A stretch of 44,632 nt of DNA from a virus (UHGV-0179607), one strand, 5' to 3'. Counted from the stretch's first letter, positions 10,243 to 44,632 are shown. Made by a program: numbers and translations. Notes: generated by a model from the letters alone, not told the origin.

Positions 10243-10270
10243 GTATTACACCGCTCAACCAGGATTGCAA
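10243..10270 (-). promoter_or_regulatory. sigma70-like promoter for the lipoprotein/RBP pair
   Basis: On the minus strand TTGCAA - 16 bp - TAATAC, about 35 nt upstream of the lipoprotein start; overlaps a copy of the TTGGTTGCA motif. Confidence 0.35.
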
Positions 10271-15087: not shown

Positions 15088-15538
15088 TCTGCGGGTCCAG
15101 TGCATACAGGGCAATTTTATCGCCGGTCTTGAGAATGCGTTGCACGCGCTTTGATTCCTCGAATCCCAGCGGTCTGTTGTCGGGGTAGTAGCTGCCGTTT
15201 GTGCCGTTACGCCACGCTATAAGCACCAAGTCTTTACGGTCGATCTTAGACTGGCGACCTTTCGGTCGTACGTACTCCTCCGCACGTTTGCAATGCTCGC
15301 GCAGACCTTCGGCAGTGATCCGGTTTAACGCCACGCTGGTGGTGTATCCGGTGCGCTGCATAATCCCCATCAACTCGAAAAGCAGTTCGAAGCGCTCCTC
15401 TAGCTCCTGGCGCACTTTCTTCTCGCCTTCATATAGCGCCTGGTTGGTGTCCGCCACCGCGTTCGCCCGTTCGGCCTGTTCACGGGCTTCGAGGCATTGC
15501 GCGGCCCAGTATGCTTTTTCTTCTTGTAAAATTTTCAT
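15074..15538 (-). CDS. hypothetical protein
   Basis: 154 aa, ATG 15538 with GGAG SD; charged, helical N-terminal half; no motif recognised. Confidence 0.45.
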   Translation of the reverse strand: MKILQEEKAYWAAQCLEAREQAERANAVADTNQALYEGEKKVRQELEERFELLFELMGIMQRTGYTTSVALNRITAEGLREHCKRAEEYVRPKGRQSKIDRKDLVLIAWRNGTNGSYYPDNRPLGFEESKRVQRILKTGDKIALYALDPQNDGE

Positions 15539-16186: not shown

Positions 16187-16878
16187 TTTAAATTTTCCTC
16201 GTTAACCGCTATCGCGAAGCCGCGCGGGGTGAGCGACCTGATTAATTTTGTGCGGGCTGATTTGCCTCCGAGGCGACTATACTGCTTCGAGTACCCTTTT
16301 TCAACGAAAACAGGTTTCTTCTCTGGCATACGGAAGCCGTTGCCGGTCCATAAGCAGGTCAGCTTCGGATATGAATCGCGGGCGTTGATGTATTCCGGGA
16401 ATAACGGGTGCACGTCATCCTCCGGCAGATATCCGCCATACTCCCACGGATCAAACGAGTGGTCCGGCTTACGCCATTGAGTTGATAGCACGCTGCGCGG
16501 ATTCTCAATCATATATGGCACTTCGAAGAAGTCACCCAGGTAAGCGGCGATCTTCGCGGTGCGCACCGCCTTAAGCTGAAAGGCTGGGTCTTTTGCACGC
16601 TTGCGCGGGAAAGCTGGCGCACCGCTCACCGCCAGATCCGTACACGGCGGGAATGCGTAGATGATATCCGGCGCGCCGAAATCGCCATTCATCGCGCGGT
16701 CTACAAAGTCCAGATCGATAAACTCATTACGATAGCGGATCCCGCGACCATAAATCCGGTAGTCCAGGTAAGACCCATGATCGGCTTCGGAGTAGTTGAA
16801 GCAATAACACTTATGCCCCATCTCGGCAGCACGCTCAATCATCAAGCCGCTGCCGTCAAATAATGACCAGATAATCAT
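16183..16878 (-). CDS. putative DNA cytosine-5 methyltransferase-like protein
   Basis: LFDGSG (motif I-like), FPPCTDLAVSG (PC motif IV-like) and IENPRSV (ENV motif VI-like); only 231 aa, so a short or atypical member; ATGA overlap with helicase gene. Confidence 0.45.
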   Translation of the reverse strand: MIIWSLFDGSGLMIERAAEMGHKCYCFNYSEADHGSYLDYRIYGRGIRYRNEFIDLDFVDRAMNGDFGAPDIIYAFPPCTDLAVSGAPAFPRKRAKDPAFQLKAVRTAKIAAYLGDFFEVPYMIENPRSVLSTQWRKPDHSFDPWEYGGYLPEDDVHPLFPEYINARDSYPKLTCLWTGNGFRMPEKKPVFVEKGYSKQYSRLGGKSARTKLIRSLTPRGFAIAVNEENLK

Positions 16879-18299
16879 TTGCGCGCCTTTTTAGCTTTCA
16901 TGTATTCCATCAAATCGTCCTGAATATCCCGCTTACTGTCGCGACGCTCGGCGACCAGTTCGTCAAGTGTGCCGCGCGCCTGGATAATGTAGACGAATAC
17001 CGGACGAGGGTGTCCGGCTTGCATCTGGCGAACCGGCCCGATACGCTCCACGATCTGCGAAAAGTGCTCAAAGTTCCAGGTGTCTGAGAAGATAGCAAGG
17101 TGGTGTCCGCCATCCTGCAAGTTAAGGCCGTGACCCGCCGATGCCGGGTGTGCGAACATGATGGGGATCTCGCCCCTGTTCCACGCTTCCATATCCTTAT
17201 TGCCTTGCTTTCCCTTACCCATAGCGACGCCGTGTGGGAATTTCTTCTTAAGACGTGCCAAGTCATGCTTGTACTGGTATGCGACGAGCAACGGTGCGCC
17301 GTTCAACTCCTCCACGATACTTTCCAGCGCGTCCAGCTTAGCGTCGTGAATTTTCACCCATTCGTCGGTCCGTTCGCCGTCTTCGTCGACCTTATACACG
17401 GCCCCGGAAGCAAGCTGAAGGCACTTAATAGTCTTCGACGCAGCGTTCGCCGCCTCCACCGTTCCGCTTTCCAGTTCGGCAAATAGCTCCGCTTCGAACT
17501 GGTCATAAATCTTGCGGGCTTTCTTAGGCAGGTCCACAACAACAGGCGTATAGATTGGCTTGTCACATCCGAAGTATTCAGCCGCGTCAACGGTAAGGGA
17601 TACGTCGGACAGACGTTGTTGTATTTCTTTCTCGGAGTTTTTTAGCGGGGCGTGCTGCATAGTGAAGCTGCCAGGCTTAACAGGCTTGCTAATAAACCAG
17701 CGGTCTGTGAATGCCTTATAACTACTGCCGAGGCGTTCGCCACCGTCGACAAACCACGTCTGACCCCACAGGTCTTTCAGTCCGTTTGGCGCGGGTGTGC
17801 CGGTTAGGTTAATCCAGCGCTTGACGCGCTTATGTGCGATCGCTGCCAGCGCACGGGCGCGCTTACTCCCCTGCTTGCTTCGATAGCCTTTCAGCTTAGT
17901 CGATTCATCGGCAACCACGACCGTAAAGGGCCATTCGTCGCCGCAATACTCAACAAGCCACTCAACTACATCATAGTTGATACAAACCACGTTAGCGTCG
18001 CTCTCAAGCGCGGCGATGCGGTCCTTCTCCGACCCAGTGCCATCTACTACCAGCAAGGCGGGGAAGCGCCATTTTTCCTGTTCCGGGGGCCATGTGCCGG
18101 ATGCAACGCGCAGCGGGGCCAGCACCAATACTCGGTCCTCCTGGTTGGACAGGATACCAGTCTGGAACATTTTATTCAGCGCCCACATAGTCGCGCCGGT
18201 TTTACCCGACCCCATTGTCGCCCAAATATTGCAGCGCTTATGCTTGAGGATGAACGCGGTTATCAACTTCTGATATTCGCGACGTCGGAAACGTGCCAT
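16875..18299 (-). CDS. superfamily-2 DNA helicase
   Basis: Walker A GSGKTG and Walker B/DExx VVADESTKLK; start taken at ATG 18299 (MARFRRREYQ...), the track start being further upstream. Confidence 0.7.
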   Translation of the reverse strand: MARFRRREYQKLITAFILKHKRCNIWATMGSGKTGATMWALNKMFQTGILSNQEDRVLVLAPLRVASGTWPPEQEKWRFPALLVVDGTGSEKDRIAALESDANVVCINYDVVEWLVEYCGDEWPFTVVVADESTKLKGYRSKQGSKRARALAAIAHKRVKRWINLTGTPAPNGLKDLWGQTWFVDGGERLGSSYKAFTDRWFISKPVKPGSFTMQHAPLKNSEKEIQQRLSDVSLTVDAAEYFGCDKPIYTPVVVDLPKKARKIYDQFEAELFAELESGTVEAANAASKTIKCLQLASGAVYKVDEDGERTDEWVKIHDAKLDALESIVEELNGAPLLVAYQYKHDLARLKKKFPHGVAMGKGKQGNKDMEAWNRGEIPIMFAHPASAGHGLNLQDGGHHLAIFSDTWNFEHFSQIVERIGPVRQMQAGHPRPVFVYIIQARGTLDELVAERRDSKRDIQDDLMEYMKAKKARK

Positions 18300-18303
18300 A
18301 TCT

Positions 18304-18522
18304 TTATTCCGCCTTTTTCCAGACTTCGGTTTCACTGTTCCAATTCCTTTTTGTGGCGTCGTAGTTGGTGCGGTGCCCGATGTGCACACCCGTCGCCCGG
18401 AAGCTCTTAAATTTTTGCCAGCATACCGTCAACGGCAGCGGGTCATTCATGCCCGCGATAAACCATACGCGATCGCCCGGTTTACATTCGCCCAGCTTGG
18501 TGAGTCGGTAATGATCTTTCAT
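18304..18522 (-). CDS. hypothetical protein
   Basis: About 72 aa; GGGAG SD 9 nt upstream of ATG 18522. Confidence 0.35.
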   Translation of the reverse strand: MKDHYRLTKLGECKPGDRVWFIAGMNDPLPLTVCWQKFKSFRATGVHIGHRTNYDATKRNWNSETEVWKKAE

Positions 18523-24791: not shown

Positions 24792-25310
24792 TTAATCTTC
24801 CAGTTCGAAATAAGTTTCGACGATTTCTTTAAGATCTTTGTGGAAGTCTTCGACGTCGTCATCTTCCAGCTTGGCGATTGATTTGATCTCGAACGATTCC
24901 AGCAGGTCGTCGAATTCGTCGTTGGCATCGTCGTCGTCACCACCAGCGATAATAGCGGCATACTGTTTGATCTCGTCGCGCATCTCTGCCAGCGGATCGG
25001 CATCTTTCTTGCCTTTGCCTTTCGCCGGTGCTTTTTTACCCTTCGCCGGTTTTTCGTCTTCGGCTTCTTCATCGTCGTCATCTTCTACGACTTCTTTTTT
25101 GGCCTTACCTTTAGCCGGTGCTTTTTTGGTTTTCGCCGGTTTTTCGTCTTCGGTTTCATCGTCGTCATCTTCTACGACTTCTTTTTTGGCCTTAGACGGC
25201 TTCTTGTCTCCCGGCTTACCAACGGCAGCGCCAACGGTTTCATAATGCTTAGCGATGGTTTCCAGTGCTACTACGCCGCGAGTAATCAGGTTTACGATTT
25301 GTTCAAACAT
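24792..25310 (-). CDS. acidic repeat protein, first gene of the leftward early operon
   Basis: 172 aa; two tandem ~20-aa repeats KKEVVEDDDDE..EDEKPAK.KKAPAKGK and a strongly acidic C-terminus; encoded by ~60-bp DNA tandem repeats at about 25030-25200; GGAG SD. Confidence 0.5.
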   Translation of the reverse strand: MFEQIVNLITRGVVALETIAKHYETVGAAVGKPGDKKPSKAKKEVVEDDDDETEDEKPAKTKKAPAKGKAKKEVVEDDDDEEAEDEKPAKGKKAPAKGKGKKDADPLAEMRDEIKQYAAIIAGGDDDDANDEFDDLLESFEIKSIAKLEDDDVEDFHKDLKEIVETYFELED

Positions 25311-25717: not shown

Positions 25718-26047
25718 ATGAATGTAAACGACGCAATCGAAATGTTAACGAAGACTGTTAGCAGTGAAACAAGCCGGTCATGGGCTTATACCGATGCCGT
25801 TGGGGCGGTGCTGTTTGAGGTCGAGCGCCTGCGCAGTGTAGAAAAAGAATTACGCGCCAGGCTGGAATTGCTCAACGGTACGGCGGCGAGCAAGCTGCAA
25901 AAACACAATGAGGAAATGGAAGAATACAAAAAGCAGGTTATCCGTTTGCGCGCCGAGGGAAAGTCATGGGCGATGATCGCGGAGTTGACAGGGATTAACC
26001 AGAGCACCGTGCGCTCCTGGGTACGCAATAACAAAACTTCGAAGTAA
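25718..26047 (+). CDS. helix-turn-helix DNA-binding protein
   Basis: 109 aa; C-terminal KSWAMIAELTGINQSTVRSWV is a typical HTH; first gene of the rightward operon. Confidence 0.5.
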   Translation: MNVNDAIEMLTKTVSSETSRSWAYTDAVGAVLFEVERLRSVEKELRARLELLNGTAASKLQKHNEEMEEYKKQVIRLRAEGKSWAMIAELTGINQSTVRSWVRNNKTSK

Positions 26048-26057
26048 GGCCACGGCA

Positions 26058-28322
26058 ATGAGCTTAATTAAATTCGCTGTTACAAGACCCGCTAAAAAAG
26101 GCGAAAAAGCCAGGGCGGAAAACTTCCAGATGACCACCGATGAATTTTTCGAATTTATCAAAGATGCGAAAGAAATCTCCTCGGTGCATATCAACAAGAC
26201 GGAAGATAAAGCCGAGTATGCGCGCCGCAAGCGTAAGGCCGACGGCATCGTGGCGTATACCAGTGACGGATTGCGTCGTAAGACCAGTGCGGTGGACCGC
26301 TCGATCCTGTTCTTCGATATTGACCGTACCGACACCCGCACCCTACGCCGCTGCCGTAAGGCGTTCATTGACGCGGGGCTGGAACACGTATTTCACACCA
26401 CAACCGGCGACCGTCACCCACTGAAAGGCGGCACGCGTTGCGCTCGATTCCTGGTGCTCACTGACAAGCCTGTACCGGCTGAAGACCTGGGCCGCGTCCA
26501 GTATGCACTATTACACCAACTGGGTCTGTCAGATGTGGACTTCGACGATTGCACGAAAGACACAAACCGCCTGATGTACCTGCCACACCAGCAGTCTGTT
26601 ATTAAGTGCCACTACGGCAAGCGCGCCCGCGTCCGTCGTCTGCTTCGCCTGGCGGATAAGTTGGGCGCGGAAAAAGAGGAAGTACGCCGCGAGCTTACCC
26701 AGGGCGACGACGCAGTGGCAGACGGCATTCTGGACTGGTGCTTCCAGGCAGGATTCGAGGAGTTATCTTCCGGGCGGGGCTATGAAGTGCCGTGCCCTAA
26801 CGAACATCTACACAGCGGCGAAGGGTCCACCGCTATTATGGTTAAGGACGGCGAGATCCGTTTCAAGTGCATGCACACAGGCAACGAGTGTTGCTCGGAA
26901 CTGAATAGACACCAGCACCTGGCGCTGCGTCTTATCGGGATCCCGGACCACCTGAACGTCGAGCCACACAATATGTCCCGTAAGCAAATCGCCGCCATCC
27001 TTCCGGGGCTGGACGACGAGGAAGTCGAATCCTTATATGAACATATTGTTGATGCGGTTGGCGACGGCGAAGAATACGGCGTGTGCACCGATGCGGATCT
27101 GGATAACGAGCCGGTTGCGCTGTTCAGTAAGCACGACCCGATTATCGAGGGGTTGATTAACTTTAAATCGACCTGGTACATGGCGGGTGAGTCGAATATA
27201 GGTAAGTCTTTCTACGTGCTGGGCCAGATGGGCGCGGTTGCTGCCGGTATTCCGTTTGGCGGTGCGAAGGTCGTCCAGTCTCATTGCTTCTATTTCGACG
27301 CGGAAGGTGGCGAAGCCTCTAACCAGCGTAAAGAAGCATTGCAGATTAAATATGAGCACGACCTGGACAAGCTGCACATTATCGATCTGCAGTCACGCGG
27401 CTGGGATATCACCAGCAAATCGGGCTTGCGCGAAGTTATCAGCTTTATCAACCGCACCGCTAACGGCGAACCGGTTGGCCTGGTGGCGTTCGACTCACTC
27501 AACCAGACTGTTGCGTTGCGGTCCGCTGATGCTAAACCGTTCGACGAGAACAACGCCAGCGATATGGGTGAAGTGGTCAAAGCGCTGAAGGCCATCGCGG
27601 AAAATACAGGTGGTAGTGCGGGCGTCATCCACCACCCGGCTAAAGGTGCAAACGGCAGCAGAACGCCACGCGGGTCCGGCGCGCTGCATGGTGCTGTCGA
27701 TTCTGCGTTCTTCCTGGAACAGCCGGACGACAACCAGCCCGGACAATTGAACCTGTATCACGAAAAGTCACGTAACGGCATCAAGCAAGCGCCGCGCGGC
27801 TTCGTCCTGCTCAAGTGCAAGGTGAAGGTGGATCTCCGCAAGTCAGAAGCGTTCGAGGCGCACCAGTCCACCAGCACCGGGCCAGACTTCGGCGACGTGG
27901 TTGCCGGATGGGACGTCAAGCCGATTGCCTCCACGCCACGCGACGAGACTCTCTACCTCGTACCGGTTGCCCTGGCACCTTTCGCTATTGAACAGGCGAA
28001 GGCGGCGGGCAAGGCCGCGGTTAAGGAAGAGAACACCGCCGGACCGCGCAACGAAAAAGAGAAAGTGCTTTATGCGGCACTGGAAAAACTGATGGAAGAT
28101 AACCCGGACCATACTGGATTCAGTAAATCGGCAATCGTCCGCCAGGCGGGACTCGCAAAAGGGGGCACTTCGACGAAGGCAATCGACGATATGGTGGAGC
28201 GCGGGGTAATAGGTTTTTATACAGATCCGCACACCGGGGCCATCTATGGGTCTTCTAATTTGGTCATCAAATCGGATATCCCTATCACGCTTTCCGCGAC
28301 CGATGACGATTTAAAAGATTAA
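26058..28322 (+). CDS. primase-polymerase (AEP-like) / P-loop replicative helicase fusion protein
   Basis: N-terminal ILFFDIDRTD resembles the AEP/prim-pol DxD motif; central Cys/His cluster (CPNEHLHSG...CMHTGNECC); P-loop MAGESNIGKSF of RecA/DnaB-like (AAA_25-type) helicases; 754 aa. Confidence 0.55.
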   Translation: MSLIKFAVTRPAKKGEKARAENFQMTTDEFFEFIKDAKEISSVHINKTEDKAEYARRKRKADGIVAYTSDGLRRKTSAVDRSILFFDIDRTDTRTLRRCRKAFIDAGLEHVFHTTTGDRHPLKGGTRCARFLVLTDKPVPAEDLGRVQYALLHQLGLSDVDFDDCTKDTNRLMYLPHQQSVIKCHYGKRARVRRLLRLADKLGAEKEEVRRELTQGDDAVADGILDWCFQAGFEELSSGRGYEVPCPNEHLHSGEGSTAIMVKDGEIRFKCMHTGNECCSELNRHQHLALRLIGIPDHLNVEPHNMSRKQIAAILPGLDDEEVESLYEHIVDAVGDGEEYGVCTDADLDNEPVALFSKHDPIIEGLINFKSTWYMAGESNIGKSFYVLGQMGAVAAGIPFGGAKVVQSHCFYFDAEGGEASNQRKEALQIKYEHDLDKLHIIDLQSRGWDITSKSGLREVISFINRTANGEPVGLVAFDSLNQTVALRSADAKPFDENNASDMGEVVKALKAIAENTGGSAGVIHHPAKGANGSRTPRGSGALHGAVDSAFFLEQPDDNQPGQLNLYHEKSRNGIKQAPRGFVLLKCKVKVDLRKSEAFEAHQSTSTGPDFGDVVAGWDVKPIASTPRDETLYLVPVALAPFAIEQAKAAGKAAVKEENTAGPRNEKEKVLYAALEKLMEDNPDHTGFSKSAIVRQAGLAKGGTSTKAIDDMVERGVIGFYTDPHTGAIYGSSNLVIKSDIPITLSATDDDLKD

Positions 28323-28397
28323 ATTCTGCGCGCATTGGTTGCCGATATGGGAATTCCCATATCGGTAGATGATTAAATTCTGCGCGCATTGGTTGCC
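28317..28397. repeat. 27-bp perfect direct repeat flanking a 24-bp perfect palindrome
   Basis: GATTAAATTCTGCGCGCATTGGTTGCC at 28317-28343 and 28371-28397; between them CCGATATGGGAATTCCCATATCGG (28342-28365); copy 1 contains the primase stop codon. Confidence 0.7.
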
Positions 28398-28482
28398 ATT
28401 TTGCGTGCTTTTAGTCGGTCGTATTGGTTGCCGTGTAGTGTAAATATAGTGAATAGTTATGCAATAAAACTGCATAAAGTAA

Positions 28483-28639
28483 GCGGGACAAAAAGCGGGA
28501 CAGACCAGGGGCGGGACAAAGCGGGACAGCACCCCTGTCCCGCCCCGGATGACGCGGCCTGGCGAGGAGCGGGACAGCGGGACAGCACCCCAGTCTTTCA
28601 GACTAGACGGGGGGTCTGGCACCCCCCTCGTCTGAGACT
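28483..28639. repeat. iteron array (GCGGGACA x6-7, one inverted) plus ~48-bp conserved-stem hairpin; copy 1 of a duplicated element
   Basis: GCGGGACA at 28483, 28495, 28511, 28521, 28569, 28578 and inverted at 28536; large imperfect inverted repeat 28591-28640; same architecture at the window ends. Confidence 0.7.
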
Positions 28640-28799
28640 GCATAAAATCCAGGATTGCATAATACACGGCAACAAGATGCGAATTGCGGTCGTCGATGAA
28701 CTAGGCAACCAATGCGAGTTGCAGAATGGTGGGTGAAAAATGCAGTTTGCAGTTGCAGCAGATAGCGATCAACTTTTTCATACGCGTGATTAATATTGG

Positions 28800-28828
28800 T
28801 TGCACCCACTCCAGCACCCTGCTATATT
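28800..28828 (+). promoter_or_regulatory. sigma70-like promoter with conserved leader
   Basis: TTGCAC - 17 bp - TATATT followed by GGTTGCACACCAACA; the 22-mer 28822-28843 recurs inverted at 38936-38957. Confidence 0.4.
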
Positions 28829-28858
28829 GGTTGCACACCAACATGAGGACTGAACAAA

Positions 28859-29335
28859 ATGAAATTTCCAGTAATCATCAAAGACGGTAAATCAACTATC
28901 ACTTTCACCGGCAACGACCACGGCACTTACGAGAGCGGCGCGGCTTGCATGTCCACCCTGGAAGATATGATGATTCGTGTTAATTCCGGTAAAGCCTCAA
29001 TTATTACCCCCCTCGCGGAGAGTACCAAAATGAAAGCATTAATCTGGAATTACACAATGGCGGTGGCGAAGCTGTATGAAGCGAAGCACACAGACGGCAA
29101 CGCAGACGACGCGCGCCAGGTTGTCATCCTGGCCCAGCAGGGAATCAGGCACGCGTTCGACGATATGTTTGCCAGCCTGGACGAACTGGAACCGCTGCGC
29201 GTGGCAATCTGCGAATATGCGATGGCTTTTGCCCGCGAGCGCCTGGCGTATCGCTTCGGGATCGGCGAGACGGCAGTGACAAACGTCGCCCGGATTAAAG
29301 CCCAGCGCGAGCTATTCGACCAGCTTGCGAAATAA
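28859..29335 (+). CDS. hypothetical protein
   Basis: 158 aa; GAGGA SD; no motif recognised. Confidence 0.45.
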   Translation: MKFPVIIKDGKSTITFTGNDHGTYESGAACMSTLEDMMIRVNSGKASIITPLAESTKMKALIWNYTMAVAKLYEAKHTDGNADDARQVVILAQQGIRHAFDDMFASLDELEPLRVAICEYAMAFARERLAYRFGIGETAVTNVARIKAQRELFDQLAK

Positions 29336-44539: not shown

Positions 44540-44542
44540 TGG

Positions 44543-44632
44543 AGCGGGACAGGCGGGGCGTCCCGTTTTGTCCCGCACCTCTAAAACTGCATATTTACTC
44601 ACCACAATTGCATAAATTAAAAGCGGGACAGG
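44543..44632. repeat. iteron-containing region at the window end, continuing at 1-70 with the conserved hairpin
   Basis: GCGGGACAG at 44543-44551 and 44623-44631, inverted copy at 44569-44576; the window then starts with CGGGACAG GCGGGACA followed by a copy of the 28591-28640 hairpin. Confidence 0.65.

Follow-up and report, generated by a model that had tools for sequence, protein, structure and literature searches.

A probable replicative primase-helicase of an HK578-like coliphage joins an archaeo-eukaryotic primase domain to a RepA/DnaB-type helicase and precedes a repeat-rich non-coding region

The DNA analysed here, a stretch of 44,632 nt from the virus UHGV-0179607 (hereafter the window), carries on its plus strand a complete open reading frame (ORF) at 26058-28322, which was recovered by ORF scanning, begins with ATG and encodes a protein of 754 aa orthologous to HK578 gp46 and SO-1 gp48. 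A plus-strand gene for a 109-aa helix-turn-helix (HTH) protein, the ortholog of HK578 gp45, lies upstream (25718-26047) and ends 10 nt before the start of the ORF. On the other side, the stop codon is followed by 536 nt of non-coding DNA (28323-28858), referred to here as region B. The 754-aa product matches PHROG 3228, 'replicative helicase-primase' (E = 0, 1145 bits), with aa 1-752 aligned to positions 3-765 of the 766 in the profile. The preliminary description of this DNA had seen in the gene an archaeo-eukaryotic primase (AEP)-type domain fused to a RecA/DnaB-like helicase. Fold searches, a Pfam AAA_25 match, one ortholog that passes PF08800 and the domain fusions of remote homologs support this proposal. 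We consider it highly probable, at roughly 0.85, that the gene product is the replicative primase-helicase of a coliphage of the HK578-like (Dhillonvirus) group and combines an AEP with a ring helicase of RepA/DnaB type.

The AEP catalytic domain occupies aa 1-200 (26058-26657, plus strand, as are all parts of the gene). Its motif I, of the general form hhhDhD/E, reads ILFFDID at aa 83-89 (26304-26324), falls within beta-strand 80-91 of the structure model and is invariant in every alignment. The DxD motif ILFFDIDRTD highlighted in the preliminary description maps to aa 83-92 (from nt 26304), and its D87 and D89 are unchanged in orthologs and remote homologs alike. Using the motif definitions of PMC5862659, we located motif III (hD/E) at F162-D163 and, downstream of it, the 'Rh' motif IV that characterizes the PrimPol-PV1 supergroup at R171-L172 (26541-26573 for both). 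No alignment shows a substitution of D163, and R171 is conserved in at least 90% of 45 orthologs. AEP families are known to differ in their nucleotide-binding motif II (sxH); a candidate, HTTTGDRH at aa 113-120 (26394-26417), was assigned by spacing analogy to T112/K115/H118 of the cyanophage S-2L PrimPol. Within it, T115 is almost invariant in remote homologs and H120 is at least 90% conserved within the clade, while position 118 is atypical, being Asp in the Dhillonvirus clade versus His in remote homologs. The spacing of the motifs parallels that of E85/D87, T112, H118, D146, and R157 in S-2L PrimPol. Across the 45 orthologs, which reach down to 43% identity, D87, D89, D163, C246, H252, C271, H273, C279, and the entire Walker A motif are invariant, and the motifs named in the preliminary description are not accidental. 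When the alignment was extended with remote homologs (22-30% identity), the only columns left invariant were K58, R73, D87, D89, R130, and D163.

A structure model of aa 1-345 alone had a predicted local distance difference test (pLDDT) score of 90.5. In a Foldseek search of this model against the PDB, the sole match below 1e-3 was the AEP domain of S-2L PrimPol (E = 2.5e-5), with Prim-PolC and LigD PolDom in the next ranks. AEP structures ranked first in the fold searches, showing that the N-terminal domain has the AEP/Prim-Pol catalytic fold, and the closest structural neighbours of the primase half are RepB', S-2L PrimPol, and HP0184, the last of which is described in the S-2L paper as an AEP that clusters with the other two. 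By its fold and by motifs I and III the domain is a member of the AEP superfamily. The searches gave neither a TOPRIM match nor similarity to that fold, and a DnaG/TOPRIM primase was rejected. None of the domain or fold searches assigned the N-terminus to a non-primase family, the outcome that had been named beforehand as one that would speak against a primase. The term 'primase-polymerase' used in the preliminary description denotes a predicted activity; the phage has its own PolA.

At the sequence level the domain is elusive. Searches of Pfam, NCBIfam and PDB sequences gave no match for aa 1-350, whether the query was the protein alone or a profile, and only one hit came from a word-indexed search that used the N-terminal fragment. 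An exhaustive HMMER search with the N-terminal domain against 1.84 billion representatives yielded only 26 clusters, which indicates a narrow family. The Pfam family BT4734-like_N (PF08800) did not match the window protein even at E<=1. Scanned one by one, six of 22 N-domains matched it at E<=1 (best E 9.3e-7). A 48%-identical ortholog (P0016) scored above the gathering threshold (26.9 versus 22.4 bits) over aa 61-122, which include motif I, and P0024 fell just under it (21.9 versus 22.4 bits), so that membership of this Pfam family is seen in orthologs only. Remote homologs carry this N-domain in front of PriCT_2 plus VapE, PriCT_2 plus AAA_25, D5_N plus DUF5906 plus Pox_D5, DUF5906, or DUF3987. 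Such swapping of helicases is a known pattern of AEP primases of mobile elements (PMC5862659), and the varied fusions therefore support the AEP reading.

The primase domain is followed by a putative Zn-binding module and a helical bundle at aa 219-335 (26712-27062), supported by invariant Cys/His residues and by the secondary structure of the model. The Cys/His cluster noted earlier in the N-terminal region was found at aa 246-287 (CPNEHLH...KCMH...ECC), and C246, H252, C271, H273, and C279 are its invariant members. In the model of aa 1-345, aa 241-271 form a small beta-hairpin unit (strands 241-244, 258-263, and 266-271), after which come the helices of aa 277-339. PriCT_2 takes the equivalent position in the remote homologs P0134 and P0135, and the published AEP architecture has a 'PriCT-1/2 or Zn-binding domain' at that place (Kazlauskas et al., 2018, PMC5862659).

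The helicase domain, of the RepA/DnaB-like (SF4-type, RecA-fold) kind, spans aa 357-602 (27126-27863). Pfam AAA_25 (PF13481) matches aa 357-531 with 70.3 bits (2.3e-19) against a cutoff of 27. The P-loop GESNIGKSF, likewise reported from the first inspection, lies at aa 377-385 (from nt 27186), with the Walker A motif GESNIGKS at 27186-27209. G377-S384 of Walker A, the Walker B-type D479, H525-H526-K529, and R535/R538 are all invariant in the 45 orthologs. The stretch DENxxxDM...HHxxKG can be aligned with RepA by sequence, and its HHPAK segment is invariant; by analogy, these residues would play the roles of their counterparts in related helicases. A fold search with the C-terminal half of the protein placed RSF1010 RepA, DnaB, and gp4 first, ranking hexameric helicases above recombinases.

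A full-length AlphaFold model built from 45 homologs had a mean pLDDT of 77. At its C-terminal end, aa 662-737 (28041-28268) form three helices and a beta-hairpin (helices 666-681, 690-697, and 703-715; strands 718-720 and 735-737) with pLDDT values of about 70-83. No family match was obtained for aa 662-737. With moderate confidence, aa 666-737 look winged-helix-like, and the region agrees with the published architecture, which includes a 'C-terminal WH domain' (PMC5862659). The protein ends in a conserved acidic tail, SATDDDLKD (aa 746-754, 28293-28319), in which all 45 orthologs share D751 and at least 90% of them L752. In phage T7, the acidic C-terminal tails of gp4 and gp2.5 contact the polymerase. 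By analogy, the ..DxDL.. tail is a candidate docking motif for PolA or the SSB (single-stranded DNA-binding protein).

The gene, its functional label and its architecture class, which was described in 2018, are all already known. It occurs in 157 phage records, 155 of which cover at least 80% of its length. DNA identity is 94-98% to more than 150 records, nearly all records being at least 90% identical, and the phage EC115 protein is 99.7% identical to the 754-aa product. Almost all of the carriers are Dhillonviruses of Escherichia or Shigella, such as HK578, JL1, EP23, SO-1, and the SECphi phages, and their records label the gene 'putative helicase-primase', 'replicative helicase-primase', or 'DNA primase/helicase'. 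With more than 150 genomes deposited under the name 'helicase-primase', the gene is of little importance as a discovery. The sole increment of our analysis is that the primase half is placed in the AEP superfamily at the level of fold, an assignment that standard Pfam/NCBIfam annotation misses.

Some deposited records (NC_073070.1, MG065648.1, and OQ221563.1) are irregular. In CEC_Kaz_2018 the primase-helicase is labelled 'DNA recombination nuclease inhibitor gamma'. Dhillonvirus sequence of 90-96% identity is found under the names 'Campylobacter phage A144' and 'Acinetobacter phage NJ01', so that a wrongly assigned host or contamination is suspected.

The gene has also been met in studies of phage defence. 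In HK578, gp46 ('helicase-primase') shares one operon with gp45, and phages escaping OLD defence carried either a point mutation in gp46 or a deletion in the promoter of the gp45-gp46 operon. A SECphi6 escaper of Lamassu had the substitution A12D in a 'predicted DNA primase-helicase' whose listed gene start is identical to that of the ORF at 26058-28322. Primase-helicase genes are also among those named for ShosTA escapers of T7, SECphi4, and SECphi18. The AEP assignment bears on how such mutations are read, since A12D falls into the AEP domain.

Further replication genes are encoded in the window. As the preliminary description had stated, the phage has a family-A polymerase (PF00476; 19251-21542, minus strand) and an SF2 helicase, here of SNF2 type (16875-18389, minus strand), and it also encodes an SSB of the Gp2.5/Enc34 type. 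The annotations of relatives name no other primase. The 109-aa HTH protein matches Pfam HTH_23, HTH_28, and Sigma70_r4_2 as well as phrog_9366, and is widely annotated as 'transposase'. Guernseyvirinae and Bas74 have Cro/CI-like or excisionase-like HTH genes at this position, and the order divergent junction, small HTH gene, primase-helicase, gene-poor stretch is conserved among them. Rather than a transposase, the 109-aa protein is more likely a regulator or an accessory factor of replication. The leftward replication/recombination module opens with a gene (24792-25310, minus strand) for a 171-aa protein matching PHROG 3127, function unknown, that contains two tandem copies of a repeat of about 27 aa very rich in Lys, Asp, and Glu (KKEVVEDDDDE.EDEKPAK.KKAPAKGK.KK).

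Region B is a composite of several elements. Around the stop codon lie two direct repeat units of 54 nt and a third box, each with ATTGGTTGCC (28312-28432, plus strand). The unit at 28312-28365 is copy-variable in Dhillonviruses, HK578 and SO-1 having one unit fewer and EP23 a larger deletion. Next comes an AT-rich patch (28439-28478, 78% AT), exceeded in AT content by only one other 40-mer in the genome (99.9th percentile), which abuts an array of seven GCGGGACA boxes at 28483-28584, six direct and one inverted (28536-28543). The preliminary description had placed a repeat element about 160 bp downstream of the stop; the stop codon ends at 28322, and the first box does start 160 nt later, at 28483. 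The window contains 12 copies of GCGGGACA versus 2.06 expected, and seven of these fall within the 102 nt of the array. The boxes are 8 nt long and irregularly spaced (12, 16, 10, 48, and 8 nt from start to start). In a comparison of nine Dhillonviruses, 75% of box positions were invariant versus 57% of spacer positions.

The array is followed by a long imperfect, GC-rich hairpin at 28591-28640 (plus strand; DNA fold -15.1 kcal/mol, z = -4.08), which is conserved: across the nine phages, 40 of 44 stem positions are invariant, as against one of seven in the loop. After it come ACTGCATAA boxes, an inverted ATTGGTTGCC, and finally a promoter-like element, TTGCAC-N17-TATATT, made of two ATTGGTTGCAC boxes (28795-28834, plus strand) upstream of the gene at 28859. 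Its hexamers are conserved and its spacer is variable in the nine phages. The small ORFs annotated within region B were dismissed as spurious, their strand and position differing between records. Four independent Dhillonvirus GenBank records (PTXU06, Zar3M, 101114B2, and SP1) end inside region B at the equivalent of window positions 28752-28754, which may point to a packaging site or a physical terminus, or simply to a common choice of record start.

The core of region B has a second copy, region A, in two parts. GCGGGACA boxes and an AT-rich patch at 44540-44632 continue across the window ends into GCGGGACA boxes, a hairpin, and ACTGCATAA boxes at 1-138, upstream of the tape-measure gene. Because the repeat module spans both ends, the window, whose length agrees with that of Dhillonvirus genomes, represents a whole genome opened inside the repeat. 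A core of about 70 nt (GCGGGACA boxes, hairpin, CATAA) is almost identical in regions A and B, while the hairpin loop differs. The SO-1 record annotates both loci as regions A and B; a literature search found no paper on this annotation.

A different repeat, ATTGGTTGC, is dispersed over the genome, with 14 copies versus 0.6 expected (at 10267, 13932, 15837, 15854, 18796, 25516, 28334, 28388, 28423, 28705, 28795, 28826, 29533, and 38945). The copies are mostly oriented as the genes downstream of them. A -10-like hexamer follows six of the 14 at a distance of 16-18 nt, against a background of 3.5% (P about 5e-6). Several read TTGCAx-N17-TAtAxT, and in tandem pairs one box forms the -35 and the next overlies the -10. 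ATTGGTTGC is probably a phage promoter or operator element, and its reader may be the HTH protein from 25718-26047 with its similarity to sigma-70 region 4. A role of ATTGGTTGC as origin iterons was rejected on account of the dispersal of the copies, their prevailing orientation with genes and the frequent -10 hexamer at promoter spacing.

What, then, is the function of region B? The preliminary description had spoken of an iteron locus. This label needs qualification: the locus is composite, some of its repeats are promoter-associated and its core is duplicated elsewhere. We regard the stretch comprising AT-rich patch, GCGGGACA array, and hairpin as the best candidate for a cis-acting site of the primase-helicase or the co-transcribed HTH protein, the link being circumstantial, and the proposed pairing of the gene as initiator with the downstream element as origin is plausible.

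The first of the explanations to be weighed, which we hold tentatively and at less than even odds, is that region B is the replication origin. The winged-helix C-terminus of the primase-helicase, or the HTH protein, would bind the GCGGGACA boxes as iterons, the AT-rich patch would unwind, and the primase-helicase would load itself as P4 alpha does at ori/crr. The alpha protein of phage P4, studied by Ziegelin, Lanka and colleagues in the 1990s, reportedly unites primase, helicase, and a C-terminal origin-binding domain and recognizes short repeats at ori and crr, which lie apart from each other. Like an iteron origin, region B has a cluster of at least three direct repeats with an AT-rich element beside it, here seven boxes in 102 nt adjoining one of the most AT-rich sites of the genome, and the boxes are better kept than their spacers. 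The region is non-coding, lies directly 3' of the gene, receives inconsistent ORF calls, and was marked as a special repeat region by the SO-1 annotators. Distant genera with orthologous genes, represented by St162 and Otaku, have repeat clusters of their own, specific to the genus, immediately behind the stop codon, and the C-terminal winged-helix-like domain fits a published idea of origin recognition (PMC5862659).

Several observations weigh against an origin. Iterons are about 17-22 bp long and regularly spaced in helical phase, in contrast to the short and irregular GCGGGACA boxes. Nor are the repeats specific to one site, since a second cluster with the same hairpin (44544-44632 and 1-70) repeats the core module of boxes, hairpin, and ACTGCATAA upstream of the tape-measure gene, and the ATTGGTTGC repeats of region B are dispersed and promoter-associated. 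In Serratia phage Otaku (L013), four exact TGTGCGGAA half-sites form palindromes right after the primase-helicase gene (26491-26550), and two further half-sites lie in the structural module (15472-15501). This two-locus pattern is like that of regions A and B, but its symmetry is that of an operator. Finally, GC skew tracks the direction of transcription and does not single out region B.

In a second possible explanation, about as likely as an origin, regions A and B are modules of transcriptional punctuation or regulation and have nothing to do with replication initiation. The boxes would then bind a regulator, and the hairpin would serve as a terminator, processing or antitermination signal. 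Each of the two copies sits at an operon boundary, flanked by plus-strand genes of the same direction, the stem of the hairpin is conserved with a loop that is free to vary, the adjacent ATTGGTTGC boxes behave like promoter elements, and the small protein encoded upstream has a sigma-70 region-4-like HTH. Yet no T-run follows the hairpin at 28591-28640 and a terminator scan did not call it, so that an intrinsic terminator was rejected and only a non-canonical element is left. A dense row of seven short boxes beside an extremely AT-rich patch is also atypical of terminators.

We consider it unlikely, arguing by analogy, that regions A and B together form a pair like ori and crr of P4, recognised by the winged-helix C-terminus of the primase-helicase, with the hairpins acting as ssi-type priming signals for the AEP in the way that RepB' uses ssiA and ssiB on RSF1010. 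If true, replication would be initiated independently of host DnaA, DnaB, DnaC, and DnaG by one self-loading AEP-helicase initiator. Very improbable is the idea that the N-domain is an AEP-derived but catalytically dead origin-binding domain and the protein an initiator-helicase relying on host DnaG; a merely RRM-like origin-binding domain (Rep/E1-like) was likewise rejected as the main interpretation, since primases outscore it in the searches and the acidic triad is invariant.

Most likely, the protein works as a primase-helicase like T7 gp4. The single polypeptide has five parts: the AEP, the Cys/His Zn and helical module, a flexible acidic linker, the helicase domain, and the winged-helix-like C-terminus with its acidic tail. 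The helicase domain would form a ring, probably a hexamer as in RepA, and translocate on the lagging-strand template by nucleoside triphosphate hydrolysis, while the tethered AEP domains would make short primers through the putative metal-binding triad D87/D89/D163 and the Zn/helical module would hold the template and the initiating nucleotide. The family-A polymerase of the phage would extend the primers and the Gp2.5-like SSB would coat the displaced strand. Overall, this would be a T7-type replisome with an AEP in place of the DnaG/TOPRIM primase. The model is grounded on homology of fold, conserved motifs, the order of the domains, synteny, and the partner proteins that the phage encodes; catalysis, the oligomeric state, and any origin recognition by the primase-helicase we infer.

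With the primase half being an AEP and not of DnaG/TOPRIM type, the replisomes of Dhillonvirus and Guernseyvirinae can be described as 'T7-like with an AEP swap'. These phages offer a tractable E. coli model for an AEP primase-helicase of bacterial viruses, and the conserved modules of repeats and hairpin are reasonable targets for mapping their replication origin.

Known systems resemble the phage protein to different degrees. The primase of T7 gp4 is of DnaG/TOPRIM type and has a fold unrelated to that of the phage AEP, and T7 gp4 lacks a C-terminal winged-helix domain. P4 alpha combines a TOPRIM primase with an SF3 helicase, whereas the phage protein has an AEP and a RepA/DnaB-type helicase. 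Formally, the recognition of two loci by P4 alpha is reminiscent of regions A and B, and by analogy the phage protein may combine origin binding with priming and unwinding. Compared with plasmid RSF1010, the protein looks like a fusion of RepB' and RepA. In RSF1010 these two are separate and RepC binds the iterons, whereas the phage protein is fused and has additional Zn and winged-helix modules; a priming-signal role of the phage hairpins is drawn from RSF1010 purely as an analogy.

Cyanophage S-2L PrimPol, the best Foldseek match of the AEP domain, shares the three-part order of AEP, module in the position of PriCT-2, and helicase. It differs in its VirE-type (SF3-like) helicase and its PriCT-2, identity being about 13%, and it has been proposed as the only polymerase of S-2L, unlike in the HK578-like phage with its separate PolA. 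The AEP-helicase fusions of the PrimPol-PV1 supergroup (PrimQH, All3500-like; PMC5862659) have the same architecture of AEP, PriCT/Zn-binding domain, P-loop helicase, for which a RepA-type option is listed, and C-terminal winged helix. The phage protein has motifs I, III, and IV, and its neighbours S-2L PrimPol, RepB', and HP0184 belong to this supergroup. In contrast, its motif II is TTGDRH, its place among the named families of the supergroup is suggested by the structural neighbours, and the sole Pfam link, seen in orthologs, is to BT4734-like_N, which PMC5862659 keeps apart from the PrimPol clade. Overall, it is one of the AEP-helicase fusions that are known as a class from phages and mobile elements.

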